Made by a program: the position numbers and the translations under genes. From NCBI GenBank assembly GCA_964584335.1, contig CAZOZN010000003.1:86436-150435 (forward strand): a stretch of 64,000 nt of DNA. The letters are read 5' to 3'. The stretch is from an uncultured archaeon (lineage in GTDB: Archaea > Aenigmatarchaeota > Aenigmatarchaeia > PWEA01 > JAGHBM01). Positions 24,965 through 63,275 of the stretch are shown in pieces. Every line of letters starts with the position of its first letter. Position 1 is the stretch's first letter. Under the pieces are notes generated by a model. That model was given only the letters and a program-made list of their open reading frames with translations. It was not told where the DNA came from and ran no database searches.

Positions 24965-25004
24965 TTAATACACCCCTTTTAATTACTAAATACTCAAATA
25001 TATA

Positions 25005-26645
25005 TCAAACTTTTATGTTTTCTATAGTTTCATATATTGTTGCGTTGTAACCCCTGAAGTTGTTTTTCGTCGAATTAAATATTTTTACTATTTTTAGATT
25101 TAAATCCTTTGGCTCTATCTCTTTTTTTAATAATTTTTTATAATCTTGCGGCAATCTCCTGTAAGAATCTTCCCATATTATATCCAGGCTTCTGCCACCT
25201 CCTATTATTATATACGATCCCTTAGGAATTTCTTGTCCTTCATATAATATATTTATTTCTTTATTTAGTGAAAAGTAGTACTCTAGCATTGTTTTGGCTC
25301 CGTCATCTGTGTAAACTTCTTTTTCTGGGTAGTTTTTTATGAAATCGTAAACATTCTCTAGGTCTGATGTGCCACTTTTTAGAAATTTCGTACTTCTGTT
25401 TACAAAAAATATTGATGTAACAAAAAGGAAAAACAATAAGGACATAATAAATATATTGTTGTATTTTTTTGGTATCTTTAATTTTTTAAGTTTTATTTTA
25501 CTCAAGCTATATCCTAACATAATCAGTGCAGGAATTGTTAAGACACTCAGATATCTGGGTCTTTTATACATCATAAAGTATTCTATCCCGTTTTTACCCG
25601 TCTCGATAAATGTAAATCCAAACTCAAGAAACAAAAATAATATAACAAACCAAAGCATAAAGAAAATTCTTTTTTCTTTGCCTTTCTTTATAGTATTATA
25701 AGAGAAAAAAATTATTGACGGTATTATAAAATAATAAAAAAATCCAAAGTAGTTTATCATACTTTCAGGGTCTTCAACCGTATGCCATAAATTGAAAAAT
25801 GTTTTTGAATGCTCAAGAAACATATGGTTTACGTATTTGAATTTTATTATACCTCCATCTATTGTCTCTACTGGCCTTGAATGGTAGTTGTTGCTTATTG
25901 CATTAAATGCAGAATTCTTATGTAATAAAAAATCTGAATTATAATACTGATATAAACTACCTTCTATTGTAAATATCAAAAGGAATCCAACAAATAACAG
26001 AAGATGTTCTTTTTTAAATTTACCTTTAATATAGAGAAAAATCATGTAAATTATATATACCCCTATCAGAATCATGCCAACGATTTTTGTTAAGTAAACC
26101 AACCCTAGGAATACTCCCGAAAAGAAAATCAGTATCTTATCATTATTTTTTATCCCCTTCAGGAAAAAGAACACGGAAAGACCGGAAAAAAATGCCATAG
26201 GTATATCAGGCACTATTCTTGTCGAATAAATTATATTGAGTGGAAATATAGAGAATAAAAAAGCTCCTATAATACCGGTTTTTTCATTAAAGAATTCCTT
26301 TCCAAATAGGTATATCAATATTAAAGAACCAATTGAGCATAATAAAAGGTATATCGAAGTCGATAATTTATTTACACCAAAGATTTTATAAAAAAAGGCA
26401 ACAGGCAAATATGTCATCAATCTAAAGTTTCTTGGTCCCGAGTCACTTTCTGGTATTTCAAATCCCTTTTCCAGCGTATTTAATGAAAGTTTATAATATA
26501 TTATCTCATCCTGTGGTTGAGCGTCTATAAAACCAATATAAAAATATGACCTGATTAATATGGCTAGGATTATTATAAGAATCAGGATTTTAGTTTTGTC
26601 TTTTTTAAAAATTTTACTTATCATTATTTTACACGACTTTCTCAT
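25005..26645 (-). CDS. GT-C fold glycosyltransferase, PMT/ArnT family (paralog 1 of 3)
   Basis: QDEIIYY DE motif after TM1; FGKEFFNEKTGIIGAFLFSIFPLNIIYS is shared with the next paralog. Confidence 0.6.
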   Translation of the reverse strand: MRKSCKIMISKIFKKDKTKILILIIILAILIRSYFYIGFIDAQPQDEIIYYKLSLNTLEKGFEIPESDSGPRNFRLMTYLPVAFFYKIFGVNKLSTSIYLLLCSIGSLILIYLFGKEFFNEKTGIIGAFLFSIFPLNIIYSTRIVPDIPMAFFSGLSVFFFLKGIKNNDKILIFFSGVFLGLVYLTKIVGMILIGVYIIYMIFLYIKGKFKKEHLLLFVGFLLIFTIEGSLYQYYNSDFLLHKNSAFNAISNNYHSRPVETIDGGIIKFKYVNHMFLEHSKTFFNLWHTVEDPESMINYFGFFYYFIIPSIIFFSYNTIKKGKEKRIFFMLWFVILFLFLEFGFTFIETGKNGIEYFMMYKRPRYLSVLTIPALIMLGYSLSKIKLKKLKIPKKYNNIFIMSLLFFLFVTSIFFVNRSTKFLKSGTSDLENVYDFIKNYPEKEVYTDDGAKTMLEYYFSLNKEINILYEGQEIPKGSYIIIGGGRSLDIIWEDSYRRLPQDYKKLLKKEIEPKDLNLKIVKIFNSTKNNFRGYNATIYETIENIKV

Positions 26646-28296
26646 ATATTCTTAATTTATAGGACCTGTAACCTGCAATTCTGTTTTCAACTTCCTTTAA
26701 AAGTCTCAGTCCCAGTTCTTCGGGTTCTGTTTCTTTTCTTATTAACTTCTGGTATTTTTCGGGTAAATCTTTTATAGGGATAGCCCCGCTTATGTCTATA
26801 CTTCTAGACCCTCCCAATATTAACAAGGAACCATTTTTTATTTTGGTTTTATCATCTAGGACATATATGTTTTCTTTTTTATAACCAGATAGGTATTTCA
26901 TTATGTTTGCAGCTGCTGGGTCTGTATATACTTTCTTTTCTGAATTTTCAATGAATTTATATGCAATTTTCAAATCACTCATGCCATCTAGAATATATGA
27001 CCTGCTTCTTTGTGTAAAGTAGATTGAACTCAACAGTAAGAATGACAGCGCAATTAAAGTTATTATCTTGCTATTTTTTTTGAAATATACAGACAAGTTT
27101 TCAGGATTTATGAACCATGCAAGTATAAGCATTGAAGCTGGCGTCAGTAAGTTCAAAAATCTTGGTGCTTTGAAAAGCATGAAATATCTTATAAATCCGT
27201 TAGATTGGTCTATTTTTAAGAATCCAAAGTCAAAGTAGATTAACAATAAAATTATCCATATTAAAAAGAAATAATTTAAATATTTTTTGTTTTTTTCCTT
27301 GTAGATTTTATATGAAAAAAATATTACCGATGGGACTATTAAGAAGTAAAAGTATCCGAAATAATTTATTTGGGTTCTTTTTTCGTTAGGAGTCCAAAGA
27401 CCAAAAATAGTTTTTGTGTGTTGTAAAAATGTTCCCGGATCGTATATTATCTTAGCTCTGCCCACCTCTATTACAGAATTTAGTTCTTCTATGTCTCCGC
27501 CGTTAAAACTGTATTTACTGAACCAAGCTTCTGAGACTATCTCTTGCCTTAAAAAAGGATTGCCTGTAAATGCAAAAAGATATGAGCTTTCAAGAGCTAT
27601 TATCAATCCAAACCCTAGTATGAAAATAAAATAAAAATATTTCGTGTTCTTCTTAATTGATTCTAAAAGTAAAAATATGACGTATATTCCTATGAATAAT
27701 ACTGCTGTAAATTTTACTAGATATCCCAATCCCAATAAGATACCAGATAAAAATATATATGACTTGTTTTTTTCTTTTATTCCCTTCAAAAAAATAAAAG
27801 ATGAAAAAGTGCAGAAAAAGAGAAGAGGAACATCGGATATTATTCTTGTTGATGATATTATGTTTAGGGGAAATATTGAAACTAGGAAAGCTGCTATCAG
27901 GCCTGTTTTTTTACTGAAGAATTCCTTTCCCATGAAGTATACCAGCGTAATTGTCCCTATTGAGCAAAGAAAACACCAAAAAGATGTTGTTGTACCGTTT
28001 ACTCCAAAAATCTTGTATATTATGGAAGTCGGCAAGTATGAAAGTATCCTTAATGAGAAAGTGTCTTGTGGACCGAAATTGTAATTTTCTTCTAGATTTT
28101 TGTATTTACTCAATTCAAGTGAGTTTATCGATGCTTTGTATGCCAGCTTATTGTATATAGAATCGTCTTGGGGTAATGCATTTGTAAGTCCCGTAAAGAA
28201 GAAAATCCTCAAGAAAATAGCTATTATTAGTATAATTATAATTATTTTATTTTCTTTAATTATTTTTATTATGTCCATTTTATTTTGCCCCTTCAA
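26629..28296 (-). CDS. GT-C fold glycosyltransferase, PMT/ArnT family (paralog 2)
   Basis: QDDSIY motif; MGKEFFSKKTGLIAAFLVSIFPLNIISS. Confidence 0.6.
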   Translation of the reverse strand: MKGQNKMDIIKIIKENKIIIIILIIAIFLRIFFFTGLTNALPQDDSIYNKLAYKASINSLELSKYKNLEENYNFGPQDTFSLRILSYLPTSIIYKIFGVNGTTTSFWCFLCSIGTITLVYFMGKEFFSKKTGLIAAFLVSIFPLNIISSTRIISDVPLLFFCTFSSFIFLKGIKEKNKSYIFLSGILLGLGYLVKFTAVLFIGIYVIFLLLESIKKNTKYFYFIFILGFGLIIALESSYLFAFTGNPFLRQEIVSEAWFSKYSFNGGDIEELNSVIEVGRAKIIYDPGTFLQHTKTIFGLWTPNEKRTQINYFGYFYFLIVPSVIFFSYKIYKEKNKKYLNYFFLIWIILLLIYFDFGFLKIDQSNGFIRYFMLFKAPRFLNLLTPASMLILAWFINPENLSVYFKKNSKIITLIALSFLLLSSIYFTQRSRSYILDGMSDLKIAYKFIENSEKKVYTDPAAANIMKYLSGYKKENIYVLDDKTKIKNGSLLILGGSRSIDISGAIPIKDLPEKYQKLIRKETEPEELGLRLLKEVENRIAGYRSYKLRIYEKVV

Positions 28297-29984
28297 GGCG
28301 CATAATAAAGTTCCGTTGTATACCTGTTAAAAACGCCGTAGTTTTTTAGATTTACTCTTTTCAGAAGTTCCCAGTTATCTGGAGTTTTGTTCATAAAATC
28401 AGGGAACTTCCTTGACTTCAAAAGCACGTATGGGGAACCGTTTGTTATTACATAAGAATTTTTTATATAATCCCCAGAACTGTAATATTCATCATCACAA
28501 TCTATATTATCACACCCGTAAAGTGTCAATCTATTTCTATAAGTCTGATTATATTTGAAGTAGAAGCTCATCTTTCCAATAAGCCAGTGGTCAGATATGT
28601 ATATTTTTTTATCTCCAATACCCCTTTCTTTTATGATATTAGAGACCTCCCTTACTTCTCCCATACCATTTCTTAAAAAAGTATGTGACTTGCTTGCGTA
28701 AAATACAGATGTAGATAAAAGAAAAGTTATTATCAGGATTCCCATAATTTTTTTATATTTGCCTCTTAGCGGGTTTTCAAATAAAAGCAATGAAACTATA
28801 ATCATTGACGGTATATTCATACATATTAGAAATCTGGGTACTCTTGCCGCCACGCAATAATCCATTATTTCTGTACAAAAGAACTGAAGAAAATATTCAA
28901 AAAACAAAAACATTGTTAATATCCATACTATTAAAAATATCTTGTATTTGTCTTTTTCTTTTCTGTACCTTACAAATCTGTATAAAAAATAAATTATGCC
29001 TATCGTAACGAAGTAGTATAAGAAACCAAACAAAGGCGGGTCGTGTATCCATTCAAAGAAACCGATTTTGTTTTCATAGTTAACGTCTTCCATTATCGGG
29101 GGTGTTAATAGATTCTTTATTACCCACCCTGTAAAATTTGGAATTCCTATCATGTTGAAGCTTTCTGATTCTAGGTTAAACATTTCCTGATAATACCACA
29201 TATAATCTGTGTTATCGTTGCCTCCTGTTTTGAAAGCACTTACTCTGCCTTTCATAGAGTGGAACCATTGACCGGTCGAATTATAAAAATATAAGTTCTG
29301 TAAACCAAACATAAGAAGAAATCCTATAACAAAAACTGAGAAAATCTTAAGATAATCTTTGGATAAATATTCCTTTTTTGTTTTTTTGTCTATAAGAAGA
29401 TAAAAAATCAAAACCGGTACAATAAGAAATATGTAACCTTTTGTTAAGTATCCTATAACCAGAAAAATTCCAGAAAAAAATGCGTAAATTTTTGATTTTC
29501 TTCTTTTTGCTCTAACAGAAAATAGTATGAATAGAGAAGAAAAAAGCATAAACGGTATGTCGGGTCCTATCTGAGTTGCATATATAACATCCAAAGGAAA
29601 AAAAGATAAAAGGAAAGCCGATACTAGTCCTATTTTTTCTGAAAATAATTCTTTGCCCAACAGGTAAGAAACAAAAACACAACCCAGTGAACATATGATA
29701 AAATAAACTGAAGTCGATATTTCATTTATACCAAAGACTTCCCAAAAAAATACTATCGGAAGATATACTGCTATTCTGTTGCTCCAAAAAACTTCATTTG
29801 GCGCCCAATCATCTCCTTTGAATATATGTGAAGCGTATTCAAGATAGGCAAAATCGTCATAGAAACCCATACCTACAAAGAAGAAAAGTCTCAGAAAGAG
29901 TGCTAAAAGTAATATTAGAGTAAGTATTATTTTGGGGTCTGATAATTGTTTTTTTATTTTTTCATTAATTTTTTTATGTTTCAA
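28293..29984 (-). CDS. GT-C fold glycosyltransferase, PMT/ArnT family (paralog 3)
   Basis: YDDFAY motif; same topology; 4-nt overlaps with its neighbours indicate an operon. Confidence 0.6.
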   Translation of the reverse strand: MKHKKINEKIKKQLSDPKIILTLILLLALFLRLFFFVGMGFYDDFAYLEYASHIFKGDDWAPNEVFWSNRIAVYLPIVFFWEVFGINEISTSVYFIICSLGCVFVSYLLGKELFSEKIGLVSAFLLSFFPLDVIYATQIGPDIPFMLFSSLFILFSVRAKRRKSKIYAFFSGIFLVIGYLTKGYIFLIVPVLIFYLLIDKKTKKEYLSKDYLKIFSVFVIGFLLMFGLQNLYFYNSTGQWFHSMKGRVSAFKTGGNDNTDYMWYYQEMFNLESESFNMIGIPNFTGWVIKNLLTPPIMEDVNYENKIGFFEWIHDPPLFGFLYYFVTIGIIYFLYRFVRYRKEKDKYKIFLIVWILTMFLFFEYFLQFFCTEIMDYCVAARVPRFLICMNIPSMIIVSLLLFENPLRGKYKKIMGILIITFLLSTSVFYASKSHTFLRNGMGEVREVSNIIKERGIGDKKIYISDHWLIGKMSFYFKYNQTYRNRLTLYGCDNIDCDDEYYSSGDYIKNSYVITNGSPYVLLKSRKFPDFMNKTPDNWELLKRVNLKNYGVFNRYTTELYYAP

Positions 29985-36179: not shown

Positions 36180-37091
36180 TTATTTCCTCATTAGCACGAT
36201 TCTGCTCCATTTACTTTCGTCTTTTTTATTGTAGCTGCAGTTTTCTTCTATTTTTTTGGCGAATTCTTTTATTTCTTCATGTAGCGGCATTTCATTATAT
36301 TTCAGCCTTTTTCTTGAAAACCCCACTGACATAAAACTCTTTACTTCTAGAAAGTCAGGTTTGTTTTTTTCTATTATTTTTGCGTATAATTCCGGTTTAA
36401 CGAAATTCAGGTTTTTTACAAGGGTTAGTCTTACTACAGTATTGCAGGAATAATTATCCAGTAGGGATAAAGATTCCATTATTTTTTCCCAGTGGTTTCC
36501 TATAGGCAGGCATGTTTTTTTGTATATTTCTTCATTTGGAGCGGGTAATGTTACATAAAGATTGGTAGGTTCCTCCATGTCTTTTAATACATTCGGGTTT
36601 GTACCGTTTGTCACTATAAAGACAGAGAATTTTCTTTTTTTAAATTCTTTAATGAGTTCTGATATTTCAGGATATTCTGTGGGCTCCCCTGCCAAGGATA
36701 TTGCTACCTGATTTGGATTCATTGCTTCATTTACCGTTTTTTTATCTGCTTTTTCATTCCCCTTGAATCCTGATAAAAGTTCCCTTTGGGCTTCTATGCA
36801 GCCTTCTACTATTTCTTCAGGTTCGTCAATTTCTCCCTTCCATTCGGGGTTTGTTATTGATGTGTCTCTCCAACAAAATCTGCATCTATGTTTGCAGAAA
36901 GGCACAGCGGGACTCATCTGTATACATCTGTGCGTGCTTATACCATAAAATTGTTGTTTGTAACAAAAGCCTTCCCCCGCTATTGCTTTTCTGGTCCAAG
37001 AACATGTTTTGACTGCAGTATGCTTGTTTTTTCCTACAAAACGGTAGCCCATTTTTTCCATTCTTTTTATGTCTTTTTCCGGTATAATCAT
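36180..37091 (-). CDS. radical SAM tRNA 4-demethylwyosine synthase Taw1/TYW1-like
   Basis: Auxiliary-cluster cysteines (KTCSW, GFCYK, HRCIQ), radical SAM CKHRCRFCWRD, and GEPTEYPEI. Confidence 0.55.
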   Translation of the reverse strand: MIIPEKDIKRMEKMGYRFVGKNKHTAVKTCSWTRKAIAGEGFCYKQQFYGISTHRCIQMSPAVPFCKHRCRFCWRDTSITNPEWKGEIDEPEEIVEGCIEAQRELLSGFKGNEKADKKTVNEAMNPNQVAISLAGEPTEYPEISELIKEFKKRKFSVFIVTNGTNPNVLKDMEEPTNLYVTLPAPNEEIYKKTCLPIGNHWEKIMESLSLLDNYSCNTVVRLTLVKNLNFVKPELYAKIIEKNKPDFLEVKSFMSVGFSRKRLKYNEMPLHEEIKEFAKKIEENCSYNKKDESKWSRIVLMRK

Positions 37092-38002
37092 TTTACCACT
37101 ATTTCCTTTAAATCTTCAGCTATTTCAGTGTTCGGGAAAATCTTCTTTGCTTTCTCTAAAAGTTTTTCTGTTTCTTTATATCTTCTTGAGAAGTGCGTCA
37201 AGACCAGTTTTTTTACTTTTGCATCTTTTGCTATTTTTGCCGCATTTACAACGCTTGTGTGTCTTTCTAAGTGATGTTTTTTACCGTGTTCATCCAAAAA
37301 AGTACCTTCGTGTATAAGCAAATCAGAGTTTTTTGCCATGTTCGAGAGATTTTTGCAGGGCGCTGTATCACCGGAGTATACTATTTTTTTGCCCTTGGTT
37401 TTTTTTGCTATATCTTCAAGTTTTATTTTTTTATCGTTAAGGATTATCTCTCCCTTTTGCTTTATTTCTTCCAGTATTTTTCCCTCCTCCAAACCTCTTT
37501 TCTTAGCTTTTTTTAAATCAATATTCCACCTATCTTTTTCCTCAAAACAGTAGGCTACAGCGGGAACCGAGTGCTTTACCGGAACAGAAAGTATTCTGTA
37601 ATGCTCGTTTTCAAAGATTTTTGATATGTCATTTCCCTCGAAGCCTACATCTTTTGTTTTCAATTCAAACCCGAAGTCCCAGTAACTAAGTTCTGAAAAG
37701 GCGTCTATGAATCTTGAAGCTTCTGGACCATATATTGTTAGAGGTTTTTCTCTCTGTTCCAGGTTGAAGGTTTCTATGAGTCCTATCAATCCTGCGAAAT
37801 GGTCTGCATGCCAATGGGTTATAAACACCCTCCTTATTTTCATAAAATGAAGGTTGGCTTTCATCATTTGAAGTTGTGAAGATTCCCCGCAATCCCAAAG
37901 CATTAAATCGCCCTGATAATCTATGAAAATACCAGGATGATGCCTTTCCGGGGTTGGTATTGAGGAACCCGAACCGAGAAAAACAACTTTTATTTTGGTC
38001 AT
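37088..38002 (-). CDS. rnz: ribonuclease Z (tRNA 3' endonuclease)
   Basis: VVFLGSGSSIPTPERHHPGIF, LWDCGESSQLQ, HWHADHFAGL metallo-beta-lactamase motifs. Confidence 0.8.
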   Translation of the reverse strand: MTKIKVVFLGSGSSIPTPERHHPGIFIDYQGDLMLWDCGESSQLQMMKANLHFMKIRRVFITHWHADHFAGLIGLIETFNLEQREKPLTIYGPEASRFIDAFSELSYWDFGFELKTKDVGFEGNDISKIFENEHYRILSVPVKHSVPAVAYCFEEKDRWNIDLKKAKKRGLEEGKILEEIKQKGEIILNDKKIKLEDIAKKTKGKKIVYSGDTAPCKNLSNMAKNSDLLIHEGTFLDEHGKKHHLERHTSVVNAAKIAKDAKVKKLVLTHFSRRYKETEKLLEKAKKIFPNTEIAEDLKEIVVK

Positions 38003-38671: not shown

Positions 38672-39211
38672 ATGATTCTTACTAAAAATGAAAGAGATAA
38701 AATAAAAAGACTTATTTTAGAGGGCAAAGTCTTTGTTTATCCTACAGACACTGTTTATGGTATGGGTTGCGATGCAAAAAACGAAAAATCTGTGAAAAGG
38801 ATAAGGGATATCAAAAAAAGAAGAGATAAGCCTTTTTCTGTAATAGCACCATCGAAAGATTGGATTATCAGAAACTGCAAGGTTAAAATGAAGGATTTGG
38901 ATATTTTACCGGGACCTTATACAATAATAGCTAAGCTAAAGAAAGATGCTGTTTGTAGCGATGTTAATCTTGGAATGGATACCATAGGGTTGAGGATACC
39001 AAAACATTGGTTTTCCGGCCTGATTGGTGAGCTAGGTATTCCTGTGGTAACGACTTCTGTGAACGTTTCCGGTAAAAAATACATGACATCAATTGACAAC
39101 ATTGATATCAAGATAAAAGAAAAGGTGGATTTTTTGGTTTACGAAGGAAAATTAGATGGAAGACCATCAAATATTGTTAATTTAGTTACAGGAGAAGAGA
39201 AAAATCGCTAG
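38672..39211 (+). CDS. sua5: L-threonylcarbamoyladenylate synthase, Sua5/YrdC family
   Basis: VFVYPTDTVYGMGCDAKNEKSVKRIRDIKKR and PGPYTII. Confidence 0.8.
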   Translation: MILTKNERDKIKRLILEGKVFVYPTDTVYGMGCDAKNEKSVKRIRDIKKRRDKPFSVIAPSKDWIIRNCKVKMKDLDILPGPYTIIAKLKKDAVCSDVNLGMDTIGLRIPKHWFSGLIGELGIPVVTTSVNVSGKKYMTSIDNIDIKIKEKVDFLVYEGKLDGRPSNIVNLVTGEEKNR

Positions 39212-40494
39212 GGTTTTATTCTTTTCATTGTCCTTGGAAAAGGTATTACATCTTGTATCGATTCTGCACCGCATATCCATTGTACTACTCTCTCTGTTCC
39301 CATTCCGAAGCCGGAGTGTGGAACACTACCATAACGTCTTGTGTCAAGGTAGAATTCATAATCTTTTAGGTTTTCGCCTTCTTTTTTGAGACTTTTTTTA
39401 ATTTCCTTTATATCAGGCTCCCTGACTGCCGCATCTACTATTTCTCCGACTCCTGGAGCAATAAGGTTGAAATTTAATGTATAGTTAGGATTTTTTGGGT
39501 CTTTCTTTTTGTAGAAAGCCATAATCTCCTTGGGGTAATGAGTTATCAGTATAGGCTTCCCGCCAAGTATGTCGGCTATGCTTGTTTCTTCCTTTGCCCC
39601 CAAATCTTTACCGTGTTTTACTTTCATCCCGTTTTCATTGAGTTTTTTGAGAACTTCATCATAGGTTATCCTCTTGAAAGGAGTCTTTAACTTTAACTCT
39701 TTTGGGTCTCTACCCAGTATCTTTAAGTCTTCCATGTTTTTTTCCAGTACCTTATTGCATATGAAAACTAAGAGTTTTTCCGCAAACTCCTCAAGCTCGT
39801 CAAATCCCATCCAGGCCGCTTCCATTTCCGTCATCCAGAATTCTGTAACATGCCTGTTTGTCTTTGATTTTTCAGCTCGGAAAGTTGGTGATATTGTATA
39901 AATTCTTTCTAGGCAGAATATCATCATTTCGGCGTACAACTGCCAGCTCTGTGACAAATATACCTTTTTTCCGAAATATTTTAACTCAAACAAAGTGGAG
40001 CCCCCTTCAGAGCCTGCTGTTGTAAATATCGGAGGCTGCATATGATAACAGTCCATTTTTTTGTGAAATTCGTTTATTGCGTCTATAACAGTTGACCTTA
40101 TTTTCATTATTGACATCATTTTTCTTGACCTTAGCCACAAATGCCTGACGTCTCTTAAAAATTCAGTGCTCTGGTCTTTTGTAATAGGGAATCTTTCAGC
40201 AAGGTGAACTACATCGAGCTCTTTTCCTCTTATCTCATATCCTCCTGGAGCTCTTTCATCTTTTTTTACAGTACCTTTTATTTTTACTGATGATTCAATC
40301 ATAAGATTTTCTGCCTTTTCAAAGACATCTTCCGATACTTCTCCCTTCTTGAATGTGCACTGTATTATGCCGGAAGAATCTCTAATCATTACAAAAATTA
40401 CTTTTTTTGAGGCTCTATGCCTGTATACCCAGCCTCTTATTTGAGCTTCTTCTGGCCCGTTCTTAAATATTTCATTAATTTTGGAAAACACCAT
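39208..40494 (-). CDS. asnS: asparaginyl-tRNA synthetase
   Basis: FRAEKSKTNRHVTEFWMTEME and GSVPHSGFGMGTERV (AsnRS-type class IIb motifs). Confidence 0.75.
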   Translation of the reverse strand: MVFSKINEIFKNGPEEAQIRGWVYRHRASKKVIFVMIRDSSGIIQCTFKKGEVSEDVFEKAENLMIESSVKIKGTVKKDERAPGGYEIRGKELDVVHLAERFPITKDQSTEFLRDVRHLWLRSRKMMSIMKIRSTVIDAINEFHKKMDCYHMQPPIFTTAGSEGGSTLFELKYFGKKVYLSQSWQLYAEMMIFCLERIYTISPTFRAEKSKTNRHVTEFWMTEMEAAWMGFDELEEFAEKLLVFICNKVLEKNMEDLKILGRDPKELKLKTPFKRITYDEVLKKLNENGMKVKHGKDLGAKEETSIADILGGKPILITHYPKEIMAFYKKKDPKNPNYTLNFNLIAPGVGEIVDAAVREPDIKEIKKSLKKEGENLKDYEFYLDTRRYGSVPHSGFGMGTERVVQWICGAESIQDVIPFPRTMKRIKP

Positions 40495-54734: not shown

Positions 54735-56042
54735 TTAAGGAGTTAATCTTTCTGTATCTCTTGGAAATAGAACAGCTTCTCTTATGTTCTTTAAATCTAA
54801 AATATACATAACAAATCTATCAATTCCAAGGCCGAATCCACCATGAGGAGGAGCACCGAATCTGAAAGGGTATGTATAATATTCAAAATCCTTCACATTC
54901 AGATTTTTTTCTTTTATTTGTTTTATTAGCTCTTTGTACCTATGTTCCCTTTGACTCCCGCTTGTCAATTCCTGTCCCTTATATTCTAAGTCGGCGCCTC
55001 TTCCACATTTCCCATCTCTCATCCAATAGAATTTGCATACTTCAAGATTCCATGGAAATTTTGTAATAAAATAGAAATCGGAACTGTATTTTTCTTTTAT
55101 TATTTTACCCAATTTCTTTTCCTCTTTTATTCCTATGTCTTCACCTTCTTTTACATCTTCACCTGCTTCCTTTAAAAATTCCAAGGCTTCTTCATAACTT
55201 ACTCTTGGAAAGGGTGTTTTTGGAGTCTCAATTTTTATATCTAATTTTTCTAGTTCTTTTTTGCAATTTTTGTTTATTTCTTTTATAACATGACTTACAA
55301 GATTCTCCTGTACTTCTAGAATATCTCCTTCGTCTTCTATAAAGGCTAATTCTACATCAAGCTGTGTAAATTCTGATATATGCCTTCTTGTATGTGACTT
55401 TTCTGCCCTGAAACTCGGACCAATTTCATATACCCTATCAAATCCTGCTATTAACATTGTTTGTTTGTAAAGCTGTTGGCTTTGTGATAGGTATGCCTTT
55501 TTACCAAAATAATCAAGATTAAAAAGACTTGAACCCCCTTCTGCTCCCGCACCCACAATTTTAGGTGTTTGCATTTCGATAAAATTGTTTTTTTCTAAAT
55601 ATTCTCTGATAGCTGTGCATATTTTGTCCCTTATTTTGAAAATTGCGGCAATCTTGGGATTCCTCAAATCAATGAATCTATTGTCCAGTCTTTTGTCAAG
55701 GTTAGTTTCTATTTTACCGGAGAAATCTATTGGAAGTGGAGTTTCTGCTTCTGAGAGCACCTTGAGTTTTTTTGGTATTATTTCTATCCCGCCTGGAGCT
55801 TCCTTGTTTGTTTTCACTTCTCCACATATTTCTAAAACACTTTCTCTGTTTATGTTTTCTATTTTTTCCAGTATCTCTTTTTTAACTTCTCCTTTTTTGA
55901 TTATTACCTGGGCTTCTCCGGACACGTCTCTAATTATTAGAAAGTTTAGCTTCCCAAATTTTCTTATTTCTCTTACCCATCCTGATATCTTTACTTCTGT
56001 TTTATTCTTTTTGGGAATATCCCCGTTAAGAATTCTTCTCAA
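54735..56042 (-). CDS. aspS: aspartyl-tRNA synthetase
   Basis: FRAEKSHTRRHISEFTQLDVE and GAPPHGGFGLGIDRFVMY. Confidence 0.85.
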   Translation of the reverse strand: MRRILNGDIPKKNKTEVKISGWVREIRKFGKLNFLIIRDVSGEAQVIIKKGEVKKEILEKIENINRESVLEICGEVKTNKEAPGGIEIIPKKLKVLSEAETPLPIDFSGKIETNLDKRLDNRFIDLRNPKIAAIFKIRDKICTAIREYLEKNNFIEMQTPKIVGAGAEGGSSLFNLDYFGKKAYLSQSQQLYKQTMLIAGFDRVYEIGPSFRAEKSHTRRHISEFTQLDVELAFIEDEGDILEVQENLVSHVIKEINKNCKKELEKLDIKIETPKTPFPRVSYEEALEFLKEAGEDVKEGEDIGIKEEKKLGKIIKEKYSSDFYFITKFPWNLEVCKFYWMRDGKCGRGADLEYKGQELTSGSQREHRYKELIKQIKEKNLNVKDFEYYTYPFRFGAPPHGGFGLGIDRFVMYILDLKNIREAVLFPRDTERLTP

Positions 56043-56325: not shown

Positions 56326-56892
56326 ATGACTTGCATGAATGGTAAAAAACTGGTTTTTGTTTGTGTATTTTTTGTAATGTTCTTTGTTTTTTCATATTCA
56401 GCGGAAGCTTCATATGACGATATAGTTACTTTGACTGTTGGTGAAATGGGTGGTACATGGATTGAGGTTGATAGTGACAGCAATAAAATGGACGTTTTAG
56501 AATTGGAGGGTTCTGTTCGCGGAGTTCCGTATTACGAGGACTGGACAAAGTTCTCTTTTACTTGTACAGAGAGCGTGGGTTTCTGTGATGACATGCTAGA
56601 TAGCAGGAGAAAGTATATCAGGGAGATACAATTAACCCCTGACGTGAATAAAACAAGGTTTTATGTTAATATAGTTGGTTACAAGTTGTCTCCGCTTGGT
56701 TTTACAAATATAACCATAGATAAATATTCCGTTGTTAATGAAAGCAGGCCCGTAGAAACCATAAACATAGGTTTAGTTGTTAACTCTTCACCAGGTTCTT
56801 TTGAGCCCTCAGAACTTGCTGGAATAGAAATATATTATTTACCCATTATGTTATTTTTTTCATTACTGTTTTTTTACAGAAAACTGGCTTAA
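56326..56892 (+). CDS. exported protein with signal peptide and C-terminal anchor
   Basis: N-terminus MTCMNGKKLVFVCVFFVMFFVFSYSAEA; C-terminal TM. Confidence 0.3.
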   Translation: MTCMNGKKLVFVCVFFVMFFVFSYSAEASYDDIVTLTVGEMGGTWIEVDSDSNKMDVLELEGSVRGVPYYEDWTKFSFTCTESVGFCDDMLDSRRKYIREIQLTPDVNKTRFYVNIVGYKLSPLGFTNITIDKYSVVNESRPVETINIGLVVNSSPGSFEPSELAGIEIYYLPIMLFFSLLFFYRKLA

Positions 56893-57549
56893 ACTGCTTT
56901 GATTTTTTTCTCCTTTAACTCTTTTTGAAGTTGACCAGCTCTTTCTTACAAATTCCGGGTACTCACCGAATTTTTTGAGTATTCTCTTTAGAAAATCTAT
57001 TGTTCTATCGTCTGAAGGATAACCCGCTCCTATCTCCTCTCCGAGCTTTTTTTCCAGATTTTTTATTGAAAGGTCTCTAACTACTTTAGCTAGAATGCTG
57101 GCAGAAGAAACAGTCGGGTATTTACTATCAGCATAATTCTCTGATATAATTTCTATTTTCAAATCCCCTATTTTGCCCATGATTTCGTTCTTTATTTTTT
57201 TGGTGTTCGCCTCGGGAGAATCCACAATAACCTTGTCGGGTTTCATAGTTTTTATGATAGAAGACATGTGGTCTATCTCAAGCCTGTTTAAGTTTGTTCC
57301 CTGTGCCCTTGATTCGTCTATTTTTTTTGCTGGTATTTTTATTACTACAAAATCTAAAGCAAGCTCCTTTATCTTCTTTTCCAGTTCCTCTCTTCTAGCA
57401 GGTGAAAGCTCTTTGCTGTCTCTGACTTCAAGTGCCTTGAGCTTCGGAATATCGTGCTCGTTAAACATCGCACCTGCTATTACAAGAGGGCCCACTACTG
57501 CTCCTCTTCCAGCTTCATCTATACCGAGTATTTTTTTCATTTTTATCAA
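56863..57549 (-). CDS. rnhB: ribonuclease HII
   Basis: ILGIDEAGRGAVVGPLVIAG. Confidence 0.85.
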   Translation of the reverse strand: MIKMKKILGIDEAGRGAVVGPLVIAGAMFNEHDIPKLKALEVRDSKELSPARREELEKKIKELALDFVVIKIPAKKIDESRAQGTNLNRLEIDHMSSIIKTMKPDKVIVDSPEANTKKIKNEIMGKIGDLKIEIISENYADSKYPTVSSASILAKVVRDLSIKNLEKKLGEEIGAGYPSDDRTIDFLKRILKKFGEYPEFVRKSWSTSKRVKGEKNQSSLSQFSVKKQ

Positions 57550-57658
57550 TTATATATTATTATTCTGTTTATTCATAAGTTTAGAAATACCATAAAAACC
57601 AATTTCCGTATTTTTTTATTTTTTTGTGTAAAAATTATGCTTGTCAAATAATATATAA

Positions 57659-57889
57659 TTGAGGTTTCTTTATTCTTACATGAAGGAAAAATACCTAGAG
57701 GAATTGGGTTTTTGCATGAAGCTCTGGGAAGAGAAAGGTGGTTGTGAATTCGGTGGAGGGACTAAGTGCGAGAAATGTGCGGTTCCCTATCTCCTGCTTA
57801 AATTAATTTCAGGAGAAATTTTGCACGGCGACATGAAAAGGCTCACTCTGGAAGACTGGAAAGAAAAAATCAGTTCTTTAAAAGATTAA
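57659..57889 (+). CDS. small Cys-containing hypothetical protein
   Basis: 76 aa with CxxxxxxC...CxxC. Confidence 0.25.
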   Translation: MRFLYSYMKEKYLEELGFCMKLWEEKGGCEFGGGTKCEKCAVPYLLLKLISGEILHGDMKRLTLEDWKEKISSLKD

Positions 57890-57894
57890 ATTTT

Positions 57895-58077
57895 TTATTT
57901 TATTCTGTAAAATATTATTATAAAAGATATTGTTCCAATCAGAAGGCCCGCTGGAATACCAACAAAAACAGAGAAACCCACATCGTTTCTTAGCATTTCC
58001 GTTACTGATATCATAGTGATTAGAAATATTAAAACCGGAATGATTATCAATAATAATATTTTTTTCATTTTTATCAC
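57895..58077 (-). CDS. small 2-TM membrane protein
   Basis: 60 aa, hydrophobic. Confidence 0.25.
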   Translation of the reverse strand: MIKMKKILLLIIIPVLIFLITMISVTEMLRNDVGFSVFVGIPAGLLIGTISFIIIFYRIK

Positions 58078-58880
58078 TTTTTTGCAACAGCGTAGGAGTC
58101 CCTGACTTGACGTTCAATTTCAGAGAATCCTGCCTTTTTAATCCTCTTTATGACTTCTGCTCCAAAATCTCTCCCTCTTTTTATGTGATGTTTAGGAAGG
58201 TAATGGTATATTTTGCCTCCTTTTCTTATAATCCTAAAGGCCTCTTTATAATTTCTGAGCGAAAAAAATTCACCGGAAGACTTTGGTGTGCCCGGGTCGA
58301 ATATTGCGTAGTCAAATTCATCTTTTCTCATTTTTTTCATTTCCTTTGTTATGTCCCCTATTTTTAGTTTAATATTTTTTTTACGGAACAACTTCTTTGA
58401 GTATGGATTTAACTTTGCTATTTCTATTACGTTTTTATCAATTTCAAATGTAAAGACTTCTTTGGCTGTTCTTGATGCTGCTATGGCAGTATAACCCAGT
58501 CCAGTTCCAGAATCAATAACCTTCCCTCTTAGTTTTTCTTTTTCAATTCTTTCTACAAAGGCTTTTTTGTGCATTGATGTGCCAGATATTTGTAGTATTG
58601 GTCTGTAACTTGTAGGCACCAACTTGTAAAGGGATTTAGTATCGTCTGAGAAGTACTGTACTTTTTCTATCTTTCCGTTTACAGGAATATAACAACTCTT
58701 GTCATCTTTTCTTATTTTCTTGGTCTTTATTTTATTTTCCCCTATTATGAACCCTTCTTTTAATAAACTAATTCTTGTCTTGGTTTTACCTAAATCGAGT
58801 GAGACTTCTAAACTATTATATTCCTTTTTAATGTTTTCGTTTATCTTTCTGATTGTCTTTGAACTCAAAATTGGTATCAT
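58074..58880 (-). CDS. class I SAM-dependent methyltransferase (PIMT-like core with ~100-aa N-terminal extension)
   Basis: Motif I VIDSGTGLGYTAIAAS; DYAIFDPGTPKSS; RKGGKIY. Confidence 0.5.
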   Translation of the reverse strand: MIPILSSKTIRKINENIKKEYNSLEVSLDLGKTKTRISLLKEGFIIGENKIKTKKIRKDDKSCYIPVNGKIEKVQYFSDDTKSLYKLVPTSYRPILQISGTSMHKKAFVERIEKEKLRGKVIDSGTGLGYTAIAASRTAKEVFTFEIDKNVIEIAKLNPYSKKLFRKKNIKLKIGDITKEMKKMRKDEFDYAIFDPGTPKSSGEFFSLRNYKEAFRIIRKGGKIYHYLPKHHIKRGRDFGAEVIKRIKKAGFSEIERQVRDSYAVAKK

Positions 58881-58901
58881 AAAAATCTCTTTATAGTTAT
58901 C

Positions 58902-59132
58902 CTAGTAAATTAAGGCACCTAAAATTACAAATGTATATGAAAATACCCAGGCCATGTTACAAACTACTATCAGTTTATCCTTGTGGGATAGGCCATACAA
59001 AACCCATAATATAGCAGGGAAGAGGAATAGAAACCAAGATGATAAGGCTATTGATGAAGCGTTTTTTTCTAGATATATTTTCAATATTTGAGGTATCATC
59101 ATAAAAGGCCCCAACAATGCTACAGGGTACAT
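58902..59132 (-). CDS. PQ-loop / SemiSWEET-like 3-TM transporter
   Basis: MYPVALLGPFMMIPQILKIYLEKNASSIALSSW (PQ motif); start taken at the internal Met. Confidence 0.45.
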   Translation of the reverse strand: MYPVALLGPFMMIPQILKIYLEKNASSIALSSWFLFLFPAILWVLYGLSHKDKLIVVCNMAWVFSYTFVILGALIY

Positions 59133-59294
59133 TATTTTATCGAGAAAACATTTCCACTTATCGGGATGGGGATATTTTTCGTGTTTTAAATGTATTCTTT
59201 TTCTTTTATGAAGATGATGATTTCCGTCGTTAAAGTGAACCATAATTAAACTCTTTTTGTTTTGTTTATAATACTAACGTTTTTTTATATCAGT

Positions 59295-60911
59295 CTATTT
59301 TTCTAATTTTTCAACTATTTCATCCAGGTCTTTTTCTCTAATAGTATTTTCATCTGATATTTCTTCTATCATTTCTCTTAGCTTGGTGTCGTTTATTATT
59401 TTTTTGTAAGGCATTCTAACTTCTCTATGAACTAGTACGGGAAGACAGTACTCATTGCTTCTAAATTCAGTCAAACCGAAACCCTCTGCCTCGACCTTGG
59501 GCATCTTATCATAAGAGACTTCCAATTCAACAGGTTTATAACCAGCGTTGATGTAAGCTATTTGTTTTGAACCGTTTGTAGTTCTTTGTATAGGAACAAA
59601 TATTGATACGTTTCTTTTTAAGTCAGGGTCTTCTTCGGAATTTTTTATCCATCTTTTTGCATTTTTTATAGGTTCCTGCACATCCTCCTCTTCATATTCC
59701 AAGTGTATAGAATCTTTTGAGATTAGTGAAAGACCTTTAAGTATTGATTTAATTTCTTTGAAATCTTCTTTTATTTTATTTTTGGATTTTTTTTCTCTGC
59801 TAATCATTCTCTTTCTTTCCATTACTTCTGGTACATAATTCTCTATTGTTTTTTCTATAAAGTTTATGTTTTTCTCCATTCTCTCATAGGATGTTGATAA
59901 AGGTTCTACTTCTAGTTCAGGCCTTATTATTATTTTTGGTGTGTAGTTTGACATACTGCAACCTATAAGTGCTGTTCTAAAGTTGCTGTGGCCAACATGC
60001 GTATGTCTTGTTCCAGCCCACTGAGAAGTAAATTCGTTTTCTAACATATCTGAATATTTTTCGTTTACTATGTATTTTTCGTATTCTTCGCTATCTTTTT
60101 TTATTAGAGGAATTATTTCATTCATCTGCCTTACGTAAAGACCGGATTTTTCATTAGGAGTAAAATCTACTTTTCCTTCTTTTATACCTTTTACGAGAGC
60201 TTTGCCCAATCCTTCCGGAATGTCACTTTGAGATTTGTCTGAAAGTTCCATAAAGAATTCTTCGTCAGGAAGCTTTGAAGACGGGAATAGGCAGTCTTCT
60301 TCTTTAATTTCGCCTGTCATTTTAGAGTAAATTCCCTTTAAAGAATAATAAGTGTGTTTTAATTCCGGCGAAGAATCTATTTTCCGATGTAGATCATGTA
60401 TTATTTTTTTGTTTATTCTTTCATCTAAGTTTTCAACAACAAAGCTAGGTTCGCTACCAAGAATTTTTATCTGCTTGTATGCTGATTTCAATTCTTCAGT
60501 CCAGTCATAGAATGCCTGTGGGACCGACCAACTGGGTTCTCTTCTGGCTTTATGATGAATCAATGATGTATTTATATAATCTTTTGAATAACCATCCGAA
60601 ACTTTTTCTAATTTTGTTAAAAAATCCGGCCTTGATAAGTCATGTCCGTTTTCATTTATTCTTTCTTCAACTGCGGCATAAATACCATCGATGAAATTTT
60701 TTACTTTTGCATATCTTATCAGTGAAAGAGAAGGAATAACTTCGTCATATTTCATCATATCTGACGGATTTGTGTAAATCAATTCATCATTTTCATAGTA
60801 ACCGCTGTGATTGATTTCTTCCGGTACCTCTGCAAGTATGGTTGCATTTCTTCCGTCAATTTTAATTTTTGTGCCATCAATTTTCCTTTCTACTATTCCC
60901 TTACCTCTCAT
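59295..60911 (-). CDS. large uncharacterised protein
   Basis: 538-aa soluble protein with no recognisable motif; begins 37 nt downstream of the tRNA-Met 3' end on the same strand. Confidence 0.4.
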   Translation of the reverse strand: MRGKGIVERKIDGTKIKIDGRNATILAEVPEEINHSGYYENDELIYTNPSDMMKYDEVIPSLSLIRYAKVKNFIDGIYAAVEERINENGHDLSRPDFLTKLEKVSDGYSKDYINTSLIHHKARREPSWSVPQAFYDWTEELKSAYKQIKILGSEPSFVVENLDERINKKIIHDLHRKIDSSPELKHTYYSLKGIYSKMTGEIKEEDCLFPSSKLPDEEFFMELSDKSQSDIPEGLGKALVKGIKEGKVDFTPNEKSGLYVRQMNEIIPLIKKDSEEYEKYIVNEKYSDMLENEFTSQWAGTRHTHVGHSNFRTALIGCSMSNYTPKIIIRPELEVEPLSTSYERMEKNINFIEKTIENYVPEVMERKRMISREKKSKNKIKEDFKEIKSILKGLSLISKDSIHLEYEEEDVQEPIKNAKRWIKNSEEDPDLKRNVSIFVPIQRTTNGSKQIAYINAGYKPVELEVSYDKMPKVEAEGFGLTEFRSNEYCLPVLVHREVRMPYKKIINDTKLREMIEEISDENTIREKDLDEIVEKLEK

Positions 60912-60947
60912 AAATAGTAATTGATTGTAAAATTATTTAACTATAAA

Positions 60948-61072
60948 ATGGTAGCGGGGGGTGGATTTGAACCACCGACCTCAGGGTTATGAGCCCTGCG
61001 AGCATTCTGTTTACACCCAGGTTTTATGAACCAAGGAAGTCTCCAGGCTGCTCCACCCCGCTATTTAGATAT
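60948..61072 (-). tRNA. tRNA-Met: tRNA-Met (CAU), initiator-like, with a ~37-nt non-canonical intron in the D-loop
   Basis: Exons read AGCGGGGUGGAGCAGCCUGG ... GCUCG CAGGG CUCAUAA CCCUG AGGUC GGUGG UUCAAAU CCACC (C) CCCCGCU A CCA. A1:U72 and three G:C pairs at 29-31/39-41 mark it as an initiator. The insert AGACTTCCTTGGTTCATAAAACCTGGGTGTAAACAG lies between G19 and the 3' D-stem strand. A 7-C run gives one extra C at the T-stem/acceptor junction. Confidence 0.75.
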
Positions 61073-61118
61073 ACTGGGTACCCAATTAGAATATATAACA
61101 TATGAGCTTATTTATATC

Positions 61119-61652
61119 TTAATTAATCTCTTTAAGAATATATTTTTCTATGAATGTCTTGTTGGAAGGAGTCAATTTGTAAGGATTTTTTAGTAAAGTT
61201 TCTACCTCTTCAAGGTCAAAATACTTTATTTTTTCTATCTCTCCTTTGTCTATATTGAATTTTTCGATTGGCACGTCTTTCCTCAAAATGAAAATTTTGC
61301 TGAACTTGTAGTTTTTTATATTATCTTCTAAATCAACTTTTAGTTTTTCATAACCAACTTCTTGGAATTCGTTTTTTTCTACTTTTAATCCTAATTCTTC
61401 TTCTGTTTCCCTTTTTATCGCTTCTTTGTAATTCTGATTCTTTGGAAAGTGTCCTGCTGCTGATGAGTCCCAAATATGCCTGTCGGATCTTTTTTGTAGA
61501 AGCACTTCTTTTGATGAATTTATCAAGTAAACACAAGCTTCCCTATGAAGAAGGCCTTTCTTGTGGACTTCTTTTCTTGTTGCTCCTTTAACTATGTTAT
61601 CTTTTTCATCGACGACTGCAATGATTTCTGATGGGTCATGAGGTATCTTCAT
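61119..61652 (-). CDS. Nudix hydrolase
   Basis: Nudix box GHFPKNQNYKEAIKRETEEELGL. Confidence 0.7.
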   Translation of the reverse strand: MKIPHDPSEIIAVVDEKDNIVKGATRKEVHKKGLLHREACVYLINSSKEVLLQKRSDRHIWDSSAAGHFPKNQNYKEAIKRETEEELGLKVEKNEFQEVGYEKLKVDLEDNIKNYKFSKIFILRKDVPIEKFNIDKGEIEKIKYFDLEEVETLLKNPYKLTPSNKTFIEKYILKEIN

Positions 61653-61703
61653 GTTATTAATTAAAAATAAATAATATTTAAGCTCTAAATTAAATGTGTT
61701 TAA

Positions 61704-62303
61704 ATGAGAGTTCTTATTTTTTGTGGCAGTCCCAGAAAAGGCAATTCAGAATCTCTGTCTAAAAATATGAAAGACCTTCTTGATGAAAAAGGAGTCAAGA
61801 CTGAGGTTATCATTCTCAGGAAAAAAGATATAAGAAGATGTAATGGTTGTGTAGAGTATTGCAATAAAAATCTTAAATGCTGTCAAGATGATGATATGGG
61901 TCAAATAATGGAAATGATGAAGAAATCAGACGGCTATGTTTTTGTAGTACCGACTTATTTTTCAATGCCCCCTGGAATTTTCAAGGATTTTATAGACAAG
62001 TGCAGCATATTATTCACATCCGGCTACGATTTATCATCAAAGAAATCTGTAATAGTTTCTGTTGGTACTGAAATTAATAATGTAGACGAGAATATAAGAA
62101 ATATTTCTGAAAATTTCTGCAAAGCTCTTGGAATAAATGTCATAGCCAAAAAAGGATTCATTTCTAAAAGTGAATTGAATGATAATTATGATGATATTTT
62201 TGAAAACGGAATAAATCCGGGAATAGAAGATGAGCTAGAGAAGTTATCTTCTAAAATATACAGAAGCCTAAAATATGAAAGCGGTGAACTTATAACATGT
62301 TAG
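61704..62303 (+). CDS. iron-sulfur flavoprotein (NADPH-dependent FMN reductase fold, Isf-like)
   Basis: MRVLIFCGSPRKGNSE flavodoxin-like N-terminus and a compact Cys cluster CNGCVEYCNKNLKCC. Confidence 0.6.
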   Translation: MRVLIFCGSPRKGNSESLSKNMKDLLDEKGVKTEVIILRKKDIRRCNGCVEYCNKNLKCCQDDDMGQIMEMMKKSDGYVFVVPTYFSMPPGIFKDFIDKCSILFTSGYDLSSKKSVIVSVGTEINNVDENIRNISENFCKALGINVIAKKGFISKSELNDNYDDIFENGINPGIEDELEKLSSKIYRSLKYESGELITC

Positions 62304-62701
62304 ACAAGGGAATGATATTTTACATTGGATGTGCGCTGATACCTACACCGCCCTCCCCCTGTTATGATTTTGGATTACAGTTTGTCTTTGTTATAGTAGT
62401 TGCATTAATATCTCCGAAGTTTGTTATAAAACCAATAAACATATTTTTGGTTTACCTTGGCAGGTTATGTAAAAAGATATTCGGCAGGATACCTGTAATA
62501 AAGATAGTAGTGGAAAAAACAGAACAGGGTATAAGGCTCTGGGAAAGATTGATGAAAAAGGGCACAAAACCCAAAAACAAACACCTGAGAAAATTGTTTA
62601 ATCTAATAATTAAAAAGGATTTTATACAAAGACTTATAGCGGGTTATTTCATAACCATAGGTTTGGGAATACTTTTGATGTCTATAAGTTTTATTATGTG
62701 A
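62297..62701 (+). CDS. hypothetical membrane protein
   Basis: 134 aa with 3 TM. Confidence 0.25.
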   Translation: MLDKGMIFYIGCALIPTPPSPCYDFGLQFVFVIVVALISPKFVIKPINIFLVYLGRLCKKIFGRIPVIKIVVEKTEQGIRLWERLMKKGTKPKNKHLRKLFNLIIKKDFIQRLIAGYFITIGLGILLMSISFIM

Positions 62702-62705
62702 TTTT

Positions 62706-63275
62706 ATGATAGAAAAAGAGCATGGAAATTTTCTGCTTGAATTTGCAAGAGATACAATTGAAAATTTTGTAAAAGGAAACGAAACCATATTGCCCGATAA
62801 ATACCCAAAAGAGTTAGACCAGCTTAGGGGTGTTTTTGTTACTCTTGAAAAGTACCCATCAGGAGAGCTTCGGGGTTGTATAGGAATACCATATCCAGAA
62901 AAACCATTAATAGATGCAGTGAGAGACGCTGCTTGTTCTGCTGCGAAGGACCCAAGATTCTCTCCTTTAAAAAAAGAAGAACTAGACAAGATTACCATAG
63001 AAGTTTCTATTCTTACTGAGCCAGAAAAAATTGATTTTTCTTCTCCGAGAGATTTGTTAGAGAAAATAAAACCCAATGTAGACGGAATGATAATAGAAAA
63101 AGGATGGAACAGCGGGCTTTTTCTTCCACAAGTTTGGGAAAAAATACCTGATAAGAAACAGTTTATGGAAAATTTAAGTTACAAGGCATATTTACCTCCT
63201 GATGCCTGGAAAGATTCCAGTATTTACAGATTTAGGGTGAAATCTTTCAAGGAAAAAGAACCAGGTAAAAATTAA
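62706..63275 (+). CDS. AMMECR1-domain protein
   Basis: GELRGCIGIPYPEKPL (RGCIG motif). Confidence 0.75.
   Translation: MIEKEHGNFLLEFARDTIENFVKGNETILPDKYPKELDQLRGVFVTLEKYPSGELRGCIGIPYPEKPLIDAVRDAACSAAKDPRFSPLKKEELDKITIEVSILTEPEKIDFSSPRDLLEKIKPNVDGMIIEKGWNSGLFLPQVWEKIPDKKQFMENLSYKAYLPPDAWKDSSIYRFRVKSFKEKEPGKN

Follow-up and report, generated by a model that had tools for sequence, protein, structure and literature searches.

A probable 36-nt D-loop intron in the initiator tRNA-Met gene of a DPANN-like archaeon

An initiator tRNA-Met gene with an interrupted D-loop is present at positions 61062 to 60949, on the minus strand, of the 64,000 nt stretch of DNA that was analysed (the window). It is most probably, with a probability of about 0.85, a functional gene of a DPANN-like archaeon that carries a 36-nt, protein-spliced intron in its D-loop. 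The identity of the gene and the position of the insert can be read directly, and the conservation of the site and the covariation of the BHB motif are seen directly in homologues. Non-canonical tRNA introns of the D-loop are already a known kind, to which this gene adds an instance.

The pre-tRNA is 114 nt, including an encoded CCA, and reads 5' to 3' as exon 1 (AGCGGGGUGGAGCAGCCUGGAG), intron (ACUUCCUUGGUUCAUAAAACCUGGGUGUAAACAGAA) and exon 2 (UGCUCGCAGGGCUCAUAACCCUGAGGUCGGUGGUUCAAAUCCACCCCCCGCUACCA). The archaeal initiator tRNA-Met is defined by A1:U72 together with G29-C41, G30-C40, and G31-C39 (PMC6412873), and the anticodon-stem pairs G29-31:C39-41 have also been described as an archaeal initiator feature elsewhere (PMC7531240). 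All of these marks are present in the window gene, where the A at 61062 pairs with the T of ..CCCCGCT and the anticodon arm, CAGGG-CUCAUAA-CCCUG, contains both the G:C triplet and the CAU anticodon. Upon in silico removal of pre-tRNA positions 23-58, ARAGORN finds a 78-nt tRNA-Met(cat) with four of four stems fully paired. The spliced exons form a canonical 7/4/5/5-bp cloverleaf with 21 of 21 stem pairs standard, made up of the acceptor stem AGCGGGG/CCCCGCU, the D stem GAGC/GCUC, the T arm GGUGG-UUCAAAU-CCACC, and a 5-nt variable loop.

These results bear out the first-pass annotation of the locus, which had recognised an archaeal-type initiator tRNA-Met gene and, in its D-loop, a non-canonical intron, and had given its 5' part as AGCGGGGUGGAGCAGCCUGG. 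It also stated correctly that there is no intron at 37/38, the anticodon loop CUCAUAA being uninterrupted. Its span, 60948-61072, overshoots the gene by 10 nt at the 5' end and by 1 nt at the 3' end. A run of seven Cs, said to add a nucleotide between the T stem and the acceptor stem, was a miscount. The run has six Cs (60956..60961), these being C64 and C65 of the T stem and C66-C69 of the acceptor stem, and no extra nucleotide is found there, since CCACC closes the 5-bp T stem and CCCCGCU the 7-bp acceptor stem.

The remaining features are all on the minus strand. A TATA-box-like element, TTATATAT, lies at 61091..61098, which is 29-36 nt upstream of the mature 5' end, and is a putative promoter; homologous loci have TTTAAA/TTTATAAA-like boxes approximately 25-45 nt upstream. 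Exon 1 (61041..61062, pre-tRNA positions 1-22) consists of AGCGGGG, U8 G9, the D-stem strand GAGC, and the D-loop portion AGCCUGGAG. The 36-nt intron (61005..61040, pre-tRNA positions 23-58) has an internal hairpin at 27-47. Exon 2 (60952..61004, pre-tRNA positions 59-111) begins with U21 and GCUC, followed by the anticodon arm, with CAU at 60991..60989, the variable loop AGGUC, the T arm, CCCCGCU, and the discriminator A. The 3' CCA is read from the sequence at 60949..60951 and is likewise encoded in the homologues L063, L124, L126, L130, L132, and L135. Directly 3' of it is a TTTT run (60945..60948), which may serve as an oligo-T terminator.

The splice sites were placed using a geometry in which there is a central 4-bp helix (H) and cleavage is two nucleotides 3' of H on each strand; the BHB register was compared with that of the canonical 37/38 intron. 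The definitions of the strict 3-4-3 BHB and of relaxed motifs are those of PMC3239211. By this rule the 5' splice site is predicted after ..CCUGGAG, at G22/A23 (61041/61040), and the 3' splice site before UGCUC, at A58/U59 (61005/61004). The intron would thus separate D-loop positions 20a and 21, with a single D-loop nucleotide between it and the 3' strand of the D stem; the predicted spliced junction is CCUGGAG-UGCUCGCAGGG and the predicted mature D-loop AGCCUGGAGU. The end of exon 1 was fixed by the BHB rule and by homologues in which the 3' part of the D-loop, ..GGAGUGCYC, is uninterrupted. These are relatives with an intron elsewhere in the D arm, and their intact GGAGUGCYC junction is an independent check of the splice rule. 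There are 39 nt between the D-loop GG and GCUC, of which three (A, G, U) belong to the mature D-loop, and therefore the intron is 36 nt. The insert had previously been given as ~37 nt running from G19 to GCUC. The location in the D-loop is right and the length close, but the insert does not directly follow G19, starting instead after the ninth nucleotide of the D-loop (..GGAG).

In the window, H is formed by C17 U18 G19 G20 (61043..61046) and, within the intron, A53 C54 A55 G56 (61007..61010). The pairs C17-G56, U18-A55, and G19-C54 each have a probability of >0.99 in the ensemble, and the fourth position is a G20·A53 mismatch. The central helix therefore has three Watson-Crick pairs rather than the four of a strict BHB, and the two helix-flanked 3-nt bulges of the 3-4-3 arrangement are not both present. 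The 3' splice-site bulge, A57 A58 / U59 (61004..61006), is regular and can be flanked by H and by an outer helix of A14-U62, G15-C61, and C16-G60. The 5' 'bulge', A21 G22 / A23 (61040..61042), is within an internal loop opposite the unpaired A51-A53, with the inner helix out of register. One regular bulge beside H with the second site in a loop is the relaxed type, and the window motif is thus of the relaxed class (hBH / BHL-like). In the ground state predicted by ViennaRNA (-48.3 kcal/mol), the D stem and A14-U59 are preserved and the intron is a side hairpin; the predicted cut sites there edge internal loops (G15 C16 / A57 A58 and G20-G22 / A51-A53) around the 3-bp helix. A strict-BHB conformer, obtained with the outer BHB helix imposed, lies 6.9 kcal/mol above it, and with this penalty it is not proposed as the ground state.

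The junction pairing in the window is no better than chance, the observed H+h of 6 being reached by 19% of intron shuffles (3842/20000). When every BHB-like pair of sites in the precursor is enumerated, there are likewise many chance combinations that score as high as the proposed pair or higher, for example 10/47, and none of the high-scoring alternatives examined yields a valid tRNA. The splice sites therefore rest on homology, as the window alone cannot fix them. A BHB fold, proposed earlier as a check, is thus found in relaxed but not in strict form, and on the window sequence by itself it is not significant. Together with that of L135, the window motif is the least regular of its family. 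Other identities for the insert were considered. A C/D-box sRNA was rejected, as no RUGAUGA or CUGA boxes were seen by eye and 36 nt is too short, and a self-splicing intron is ruled out by size.

A scan of species-representative genomes was conducted for the initiator 5' end followed by 35-65 nt of any sequence and then the initiator anticodon arm and T loop. At least 120 loci were identified, and the archaeal ones fall into three classes after filtering for acceptor complementarity. Bacterial matches were ignored, many being bacterial initiator genes with a chance upstream AGCGG..T.G. In the first class, where the insert is at the same site as in the window, the matches listed include L031 from Micrarchaeota, L069 and L110 from Woesearchaeota, and L105 from an unclassified archaeon. 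The insert of L063, from Aenigmatarchaeota, is similarly placed, but the gene is of the GGAA type. A metagenome scan restricted to the window's site identified 14 further loci. In total, there are at least 15 other distinct initiator genes with an insert at exactly this site, found in DPANN MAGs (Micr- and Woesearchaeota), in one unclassified archaeal MAG, and on metagenome contigs. The inserts of these homologues are 30-44 nt and have diverged in sequence, with the exons conserved.

Alignment of 16 distinct GGAG-type precursors supports the BHB register. As these were cut at fixed offsets from the assumed sites, the alignment leans toward the model, under which (h-B-H-B-h') 79.0% of cells are paired against 62.5% in shuffles, with 0 of 500 shuffles reaching the observed value. 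Controls with a slid register, which address the fixed-offset bias, have 26-49% of cells paired. In the inner helix, seven of seven pairs change on both sides, and eight such pairs are counted in the junction pairing as a whole, which is therefore conserved with covariation among same-site homologues. Four standard pairs are present in H in 9 of the 15 homologues, and in several of these (for example L124, L125, L126, L131, and L133) the inner helix is in register as well. A compensatory change from U-A to A-U is seen at the second H pair of L105. The G·A at the fourth position of H recurs in L105, L127, and L136, where the motifs are otherwise regular. Homologues of the GGAA type (..CCWGGAA/C..; L063, L123, L128, and L134) do not fit the GGAG-type BHB register and were left out of the covariation count.

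The second class, which among the matches listed includes L005, L012, L022, L029, L032, L043, L107, and L117 (DPANN or unclassified archaeal MAGs), has inserts elsewhere in the D arm. These are within the 5' strand of the D stem, after A14-G15, or before G10, and L032 apparently has two D-arm inserts. It seems that the D arm of tRNAiMet is a preferred target for introns in these lineages. Some initiator genes have more than one intron: L128 (10419-10551), L131 (204-339), and L136 (at a contig end) carry, besides the D-loop intron, a further insert that is in the T arm or T loop, for example GGUCGGUGG/AAGUGGAAGG../..UUCAAAU. The 7-mer UGGUUCA (61028-61034) is common to the window intron and to the T arm of the same tRNA, with approximately 0.13 occurrences expected, and the introns of L130, L132, and L135 contain GUGGUUUCAA, similar to the T-arm consensus GUGGUUCAAA. 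Chance may account for these similarities, or they may be a trace of the origin of the intron.

Standard tRNA predictors do not recover this gene. ARAGORN in its default mode reports no tRNA in the whole 64-kb window, which is uninformative because this mode does not handle D-loop introns. An Rfam tRNA match at 60952-61022 (32.6 bits) was rejected as a gene model; it is truncated and has a false 5' half, in which the intron-derived ACCUGGG is taken for an acceptor strand with two mismatches. ARAGORN, Rfam at its gathering threshold and at an E-value threshold, and a search for T-loop motifs found no other tRNA-like elements in the 64-kb window. With its intron option (-i), ARAGORN reports a tRNA-Met(cat) of 75 nt with a 39-nt intron at 38/39. 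The first-pass annotation had named a predicted canonical intron as a finding that would tell against it, and formally this is such a finding, yet the parse is an artefact. It takes the CAU in the hairpin UUCAUAA of the insert (pre-tRNA 33-39) as the true anticodon and the next 39 nt, the GGGCUCAUAACCC arm among them, as an ordinary anticodon-loop intron. An exact match to the program's output is what speaks for this arrangement. It requires a mismatch as well as a G·U pair in the D stem, an anticodon stem with two G·U pairs and without the initiator G:C triplet, a variable loop of only 3 nt, and splice sites at which one of the four central-helix pairs of a BHB can form. It also throws away an arm that is conserved in every homologue, and the closest of these (L130, L132, and L135) have no CAU in the corresponding hairpin. 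When 17 homologues were run in the same mode, none was given a tRNA-Met parse; the tRNAs called were for Ser, Lys, Gly, Val, Arg, Phe, Thr, or Ala and differed in their introns, or there was no call at all. The parse is force-fitting and is rejected, a canonical intron here being hardly credible. The CAU-bearing loop of the intron hairpin, UUCAUAA (61024-61030), mimics an anticodon loop and so misleads the program.

It is unlikely, though less so than a canonical intron, that the window holds a decaying or poorly spliced copy, in which the relaxed 5' site blocks efficient removal of the insert and another initiator gene does the work. Such decay would be in keeping with the chance-level pairing of the motif and with its standing, beside L135, as the least regular of the family. 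It would also be in keeping with signs of local rearrangement, as the tRNA is inverted with respect to its conserved RNase HII and AMMECR1 neighbours and extra genes have been inserted. Against decay, the exons are flawless in their stem pairs and initiator marks, and the promoter-like box, the encoded CCA, and the T-run are intact. Where the anticodon stem differs from that of homologues, the changes are compensatory, as with CA..UG in the window for UU..AA in L133, and the fourth-position G·A is shared with the three otherwise regular motifs. A disrupted single-copy initiator gene is, moreover, known to be essential and processed in T. pendens (PMC3218864). It is most improbable that the insert is retained as an extra hairpin of the D-loop in the mature tRNA, or that it is an assembly artefact. 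The minimum-free-energy fold does keep the cloverleaf with the insert as a stable side arm, as retention would have it. An arm inserted after G18 G19 would be expected to disturb the contact between the D-loop and the T-loop. In addition, the insert varies freely in sequence and length among homologues and the junction pairing covaries in the BHB register, which is the signature of a spliced intron and not that of an arm with a function. The identical sequence is present in two independent Logan assemblies (SRR15425351 and SRR15425353), which argues against an assembly artefact. A functional gene with a spliced D-loop intron is thus the preferred reading.

For such a gene, the precursor would be transcribed from the TATA-like element at 61098-61091, and the D-loop CUG(G) would pair with the (A)CAG of the intron to make the central helix of a BHB-like motif. 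The archaeal splicing endonuclease, EndA, would then cut two nucleotides 3' of H on each strand, and an RtcB-type ligase would join the exons to give the D-loop predicted above. RNase P and 3' processing enzymes would finish the 78-nt tRNA, the CCA being encoded and followed by TTTT. The enzymes and the expression of the gene are, like the exact cleavage sites, predictions. Since the motif is relaxed, with three pairs and a G·A and with the 5' site in an internal loop, the cognate EndA must tolerate substrates that are not strict. Neither EndA nor RtcB was recognised in the window, where 26 ORFs were scanned with Pfam and the others judged by eye to be unrelated.

Enzymes of this kind have been described. 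The first-pass annotation associated such introns with splicing endonucleases of broadened specificity in Crenarchaeota and DPANN, and the literature agrees (PMC5829648, PMC3239211). The EndA variants include the epsilon2 enzyme of ARMAN-2, which cuts relaxed motifs (PMC3239211), and an alpha4 enzyme with an extra L3 loop in several DPANN lineages, Pace- and Woesearchaeota among them, which has been linked to a greater number of disrupted tRNA genes (PMC5829648). The latter analysis included four newly sequenced DPANN genomes, among them a Pacearchaeota and a Woesearchaeota archaeon.

The window has a G+C content of 33% and contains archaeal housekeeping genes. In several of the homologous loci the tRNA is flanked by genes for RNase HII and AMMECR1 that share 43-52% identity with those of the window, the range being 46-52% for loci from Woesearchaeota and related MAGs or metagenomes. 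Together these place the window in DPANN, probably in a lineage near the Woese-/Pacearchaeota, although this is judged from the neighbouring genes and not from a phylogeny. In L130, L132, and L135, the tRNA lies in an interval of approximately 1.5 kb, flanked by the genes for RNase HII (divergent) and AMMECR1 (co-directional). In the window (56863-63275) these two genes keep their orientation and are 5.2 kb apart, with the tRNA inverted and six further ORFs between them, encoding a methyltransferase, an MtN3-like protein, a 538-aa DUF3160-like protein, a NUDIX protein, an FMN-reductase-like protein, and a protein of 134 aa. A local rearrangement or insertion beside the tRNA is indicated. The 538-aa protein (59295-60911), encoded directly downstream of the tRNA, has no Pfam match above threshold; its only match, in the precomputed annotation, is a weak one to DUF3160.

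Several genes in the window are associated with tRNA maturation, encoding aTrm56 (the Cm56 methyltransferase; 21075-21584), a Taw1/TYW1-type wyosine radical-SAM enzyme and, from a gene that overlaps its own by 4 nt, a metallo-beta-lactamase (RNase Z-like) protein (both within 36180-38002), and Sua5/YrdC (t6A; 38672-39211). ThrRS-, AsnRS-, and AspRS-like genes are at 17552-19243, 39208-40494, and 54735-56042. Elsewhere, 21585-29984 is a same-strand run of genes for membrane proteins of approximately 550 aa with a PMT_2 (dolichyl-phosphate-mannose mannosyltransferase-like) domain, broken by a carbamoyltransferase gene at 23279-24964. PMT_2 was identified by Pfam at 21585-23279 and 25005-26645, and two more members look paralogous by eye. 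For a small genome, such a glycosylation cluster is large.

The same D-loop site is also occupied in a group of archaea outside these lineages. Approximately 50 Thermoplasmata MAGs among the matches listed (L004-L115, for example L004 3926-4017) have an insert after ..GUCAGGAA. At least 47 distinct Thermoplasmata initiator sequences have a GC-rich intron of 27-32 nt at the window's D-loop site. Their H is C-G, A-U, G-C, G-C (CAGG/CCUG) and is a perfect 4 bp in 45 of the 47 distinct sequences; the motif is a strict 3-4-3 BHB with AAA 3-nt bulges and a GC-rich, covarying inner helix. No description of this D-loop intron in Thermoplasmata tRNAiMet was found in the literature cited. The introns of these soil Thermoplasmata and of the window agree in position, following ..GGAR and leaving one nucleotide before the 3' strand of the D stem. 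The Thermoplasmata introns differ from the window's in being 27-32 nt and GC-rich, with a strict 4-bp helix and AAA bulges, and there is no sequence similarity between the two.

It is tempting, though on present evidence doubtful, to see this site as an ancient orthologous intron, or else as a strongly preferred hot spot, shared by DPANN and soil Thermoplasmata (at least 16 and at least 47 sequences), from which the motifs of the window and of L130, L132, and L135 have drifted away from the 3-4-3 arrangement so that both cut sites are in internal loops. If this is the case, the drift in these four would imply an EndA specificity that is uncharacterised, for example that of an alpha4 enzyme with the L3 loop. 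The system could then be used to ask how loops of the enzyme and relaxation of its substrate co-evolve when the tRNA concerned is essential and presumably single-copy.

D-loop introns with relaxed motifs that are spliced have been documented at 20b/21 in tRNA-Glu of M. kandleri and also in tRNA-Thr of A. pernix (PMC5829648, PMC3239211). The window gene resembles these in having a short intron, by inference protein-spliced as theirs are, in the 3' part of the D-loop adjoining the 3' strand of the D stem, in having a relaxed motif rather than a strict 3-4-3, and in giving a normal cloverleaf after removal. It differs in being an initiator tRNA-Met gene from a low-GC, DPANN-like lineage that is not a hyperthermophile, and in the details of the motif, where relaxation affects the 5' site and spares the 3' bulge. 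Its type of host, its non-canonical intron position, the failure of standard predictors to find it, and the expectation of an endonuclease of broadened specificity are all shared with the disrupted tRNA genes reported from DPANN (PMC3239211, PMC5829648), although the published introns are at other positions, such as 59/60 and 53/54 in ARMAN-2.

The initiator tRNA itself is disrupted in other ways in some archaea, and the window gene differs from these in being contiguous with a single cis intron in its D-loop. Nanoarchaeum equitans has a split tRNAiMet. In T. pendens the gene is permuted, essential, single-copy, and dependent upon BHB processing (PMC3218864), and the window gene would be like it in being an essential initiator gene with this dependence.

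The known picture of archaeal tRNA splicing is unchanged by the window gene. It goes beyond the ordinary modestly, in the sharing of its site across DPANN and Thermoplasmata and in its unusually relaxed motif. Standard annotation of the window would yield either no tRNA or a truncated one, and where an initiator tRNA is missed or mis-drawn by standard tools, MAG completeness and tRNA-set statistics will be off for such archaea. An essential tRNA is added to the genes that depend upon non-canonical splicing in DPANN, its D-loop insertion site is seen to be shared by many genomes of DPANN and Thermoplasmata, and the relaxed motif of the window gene is a concrete substrate with which the specificity of DPANN splicing endonucleases could be tested.
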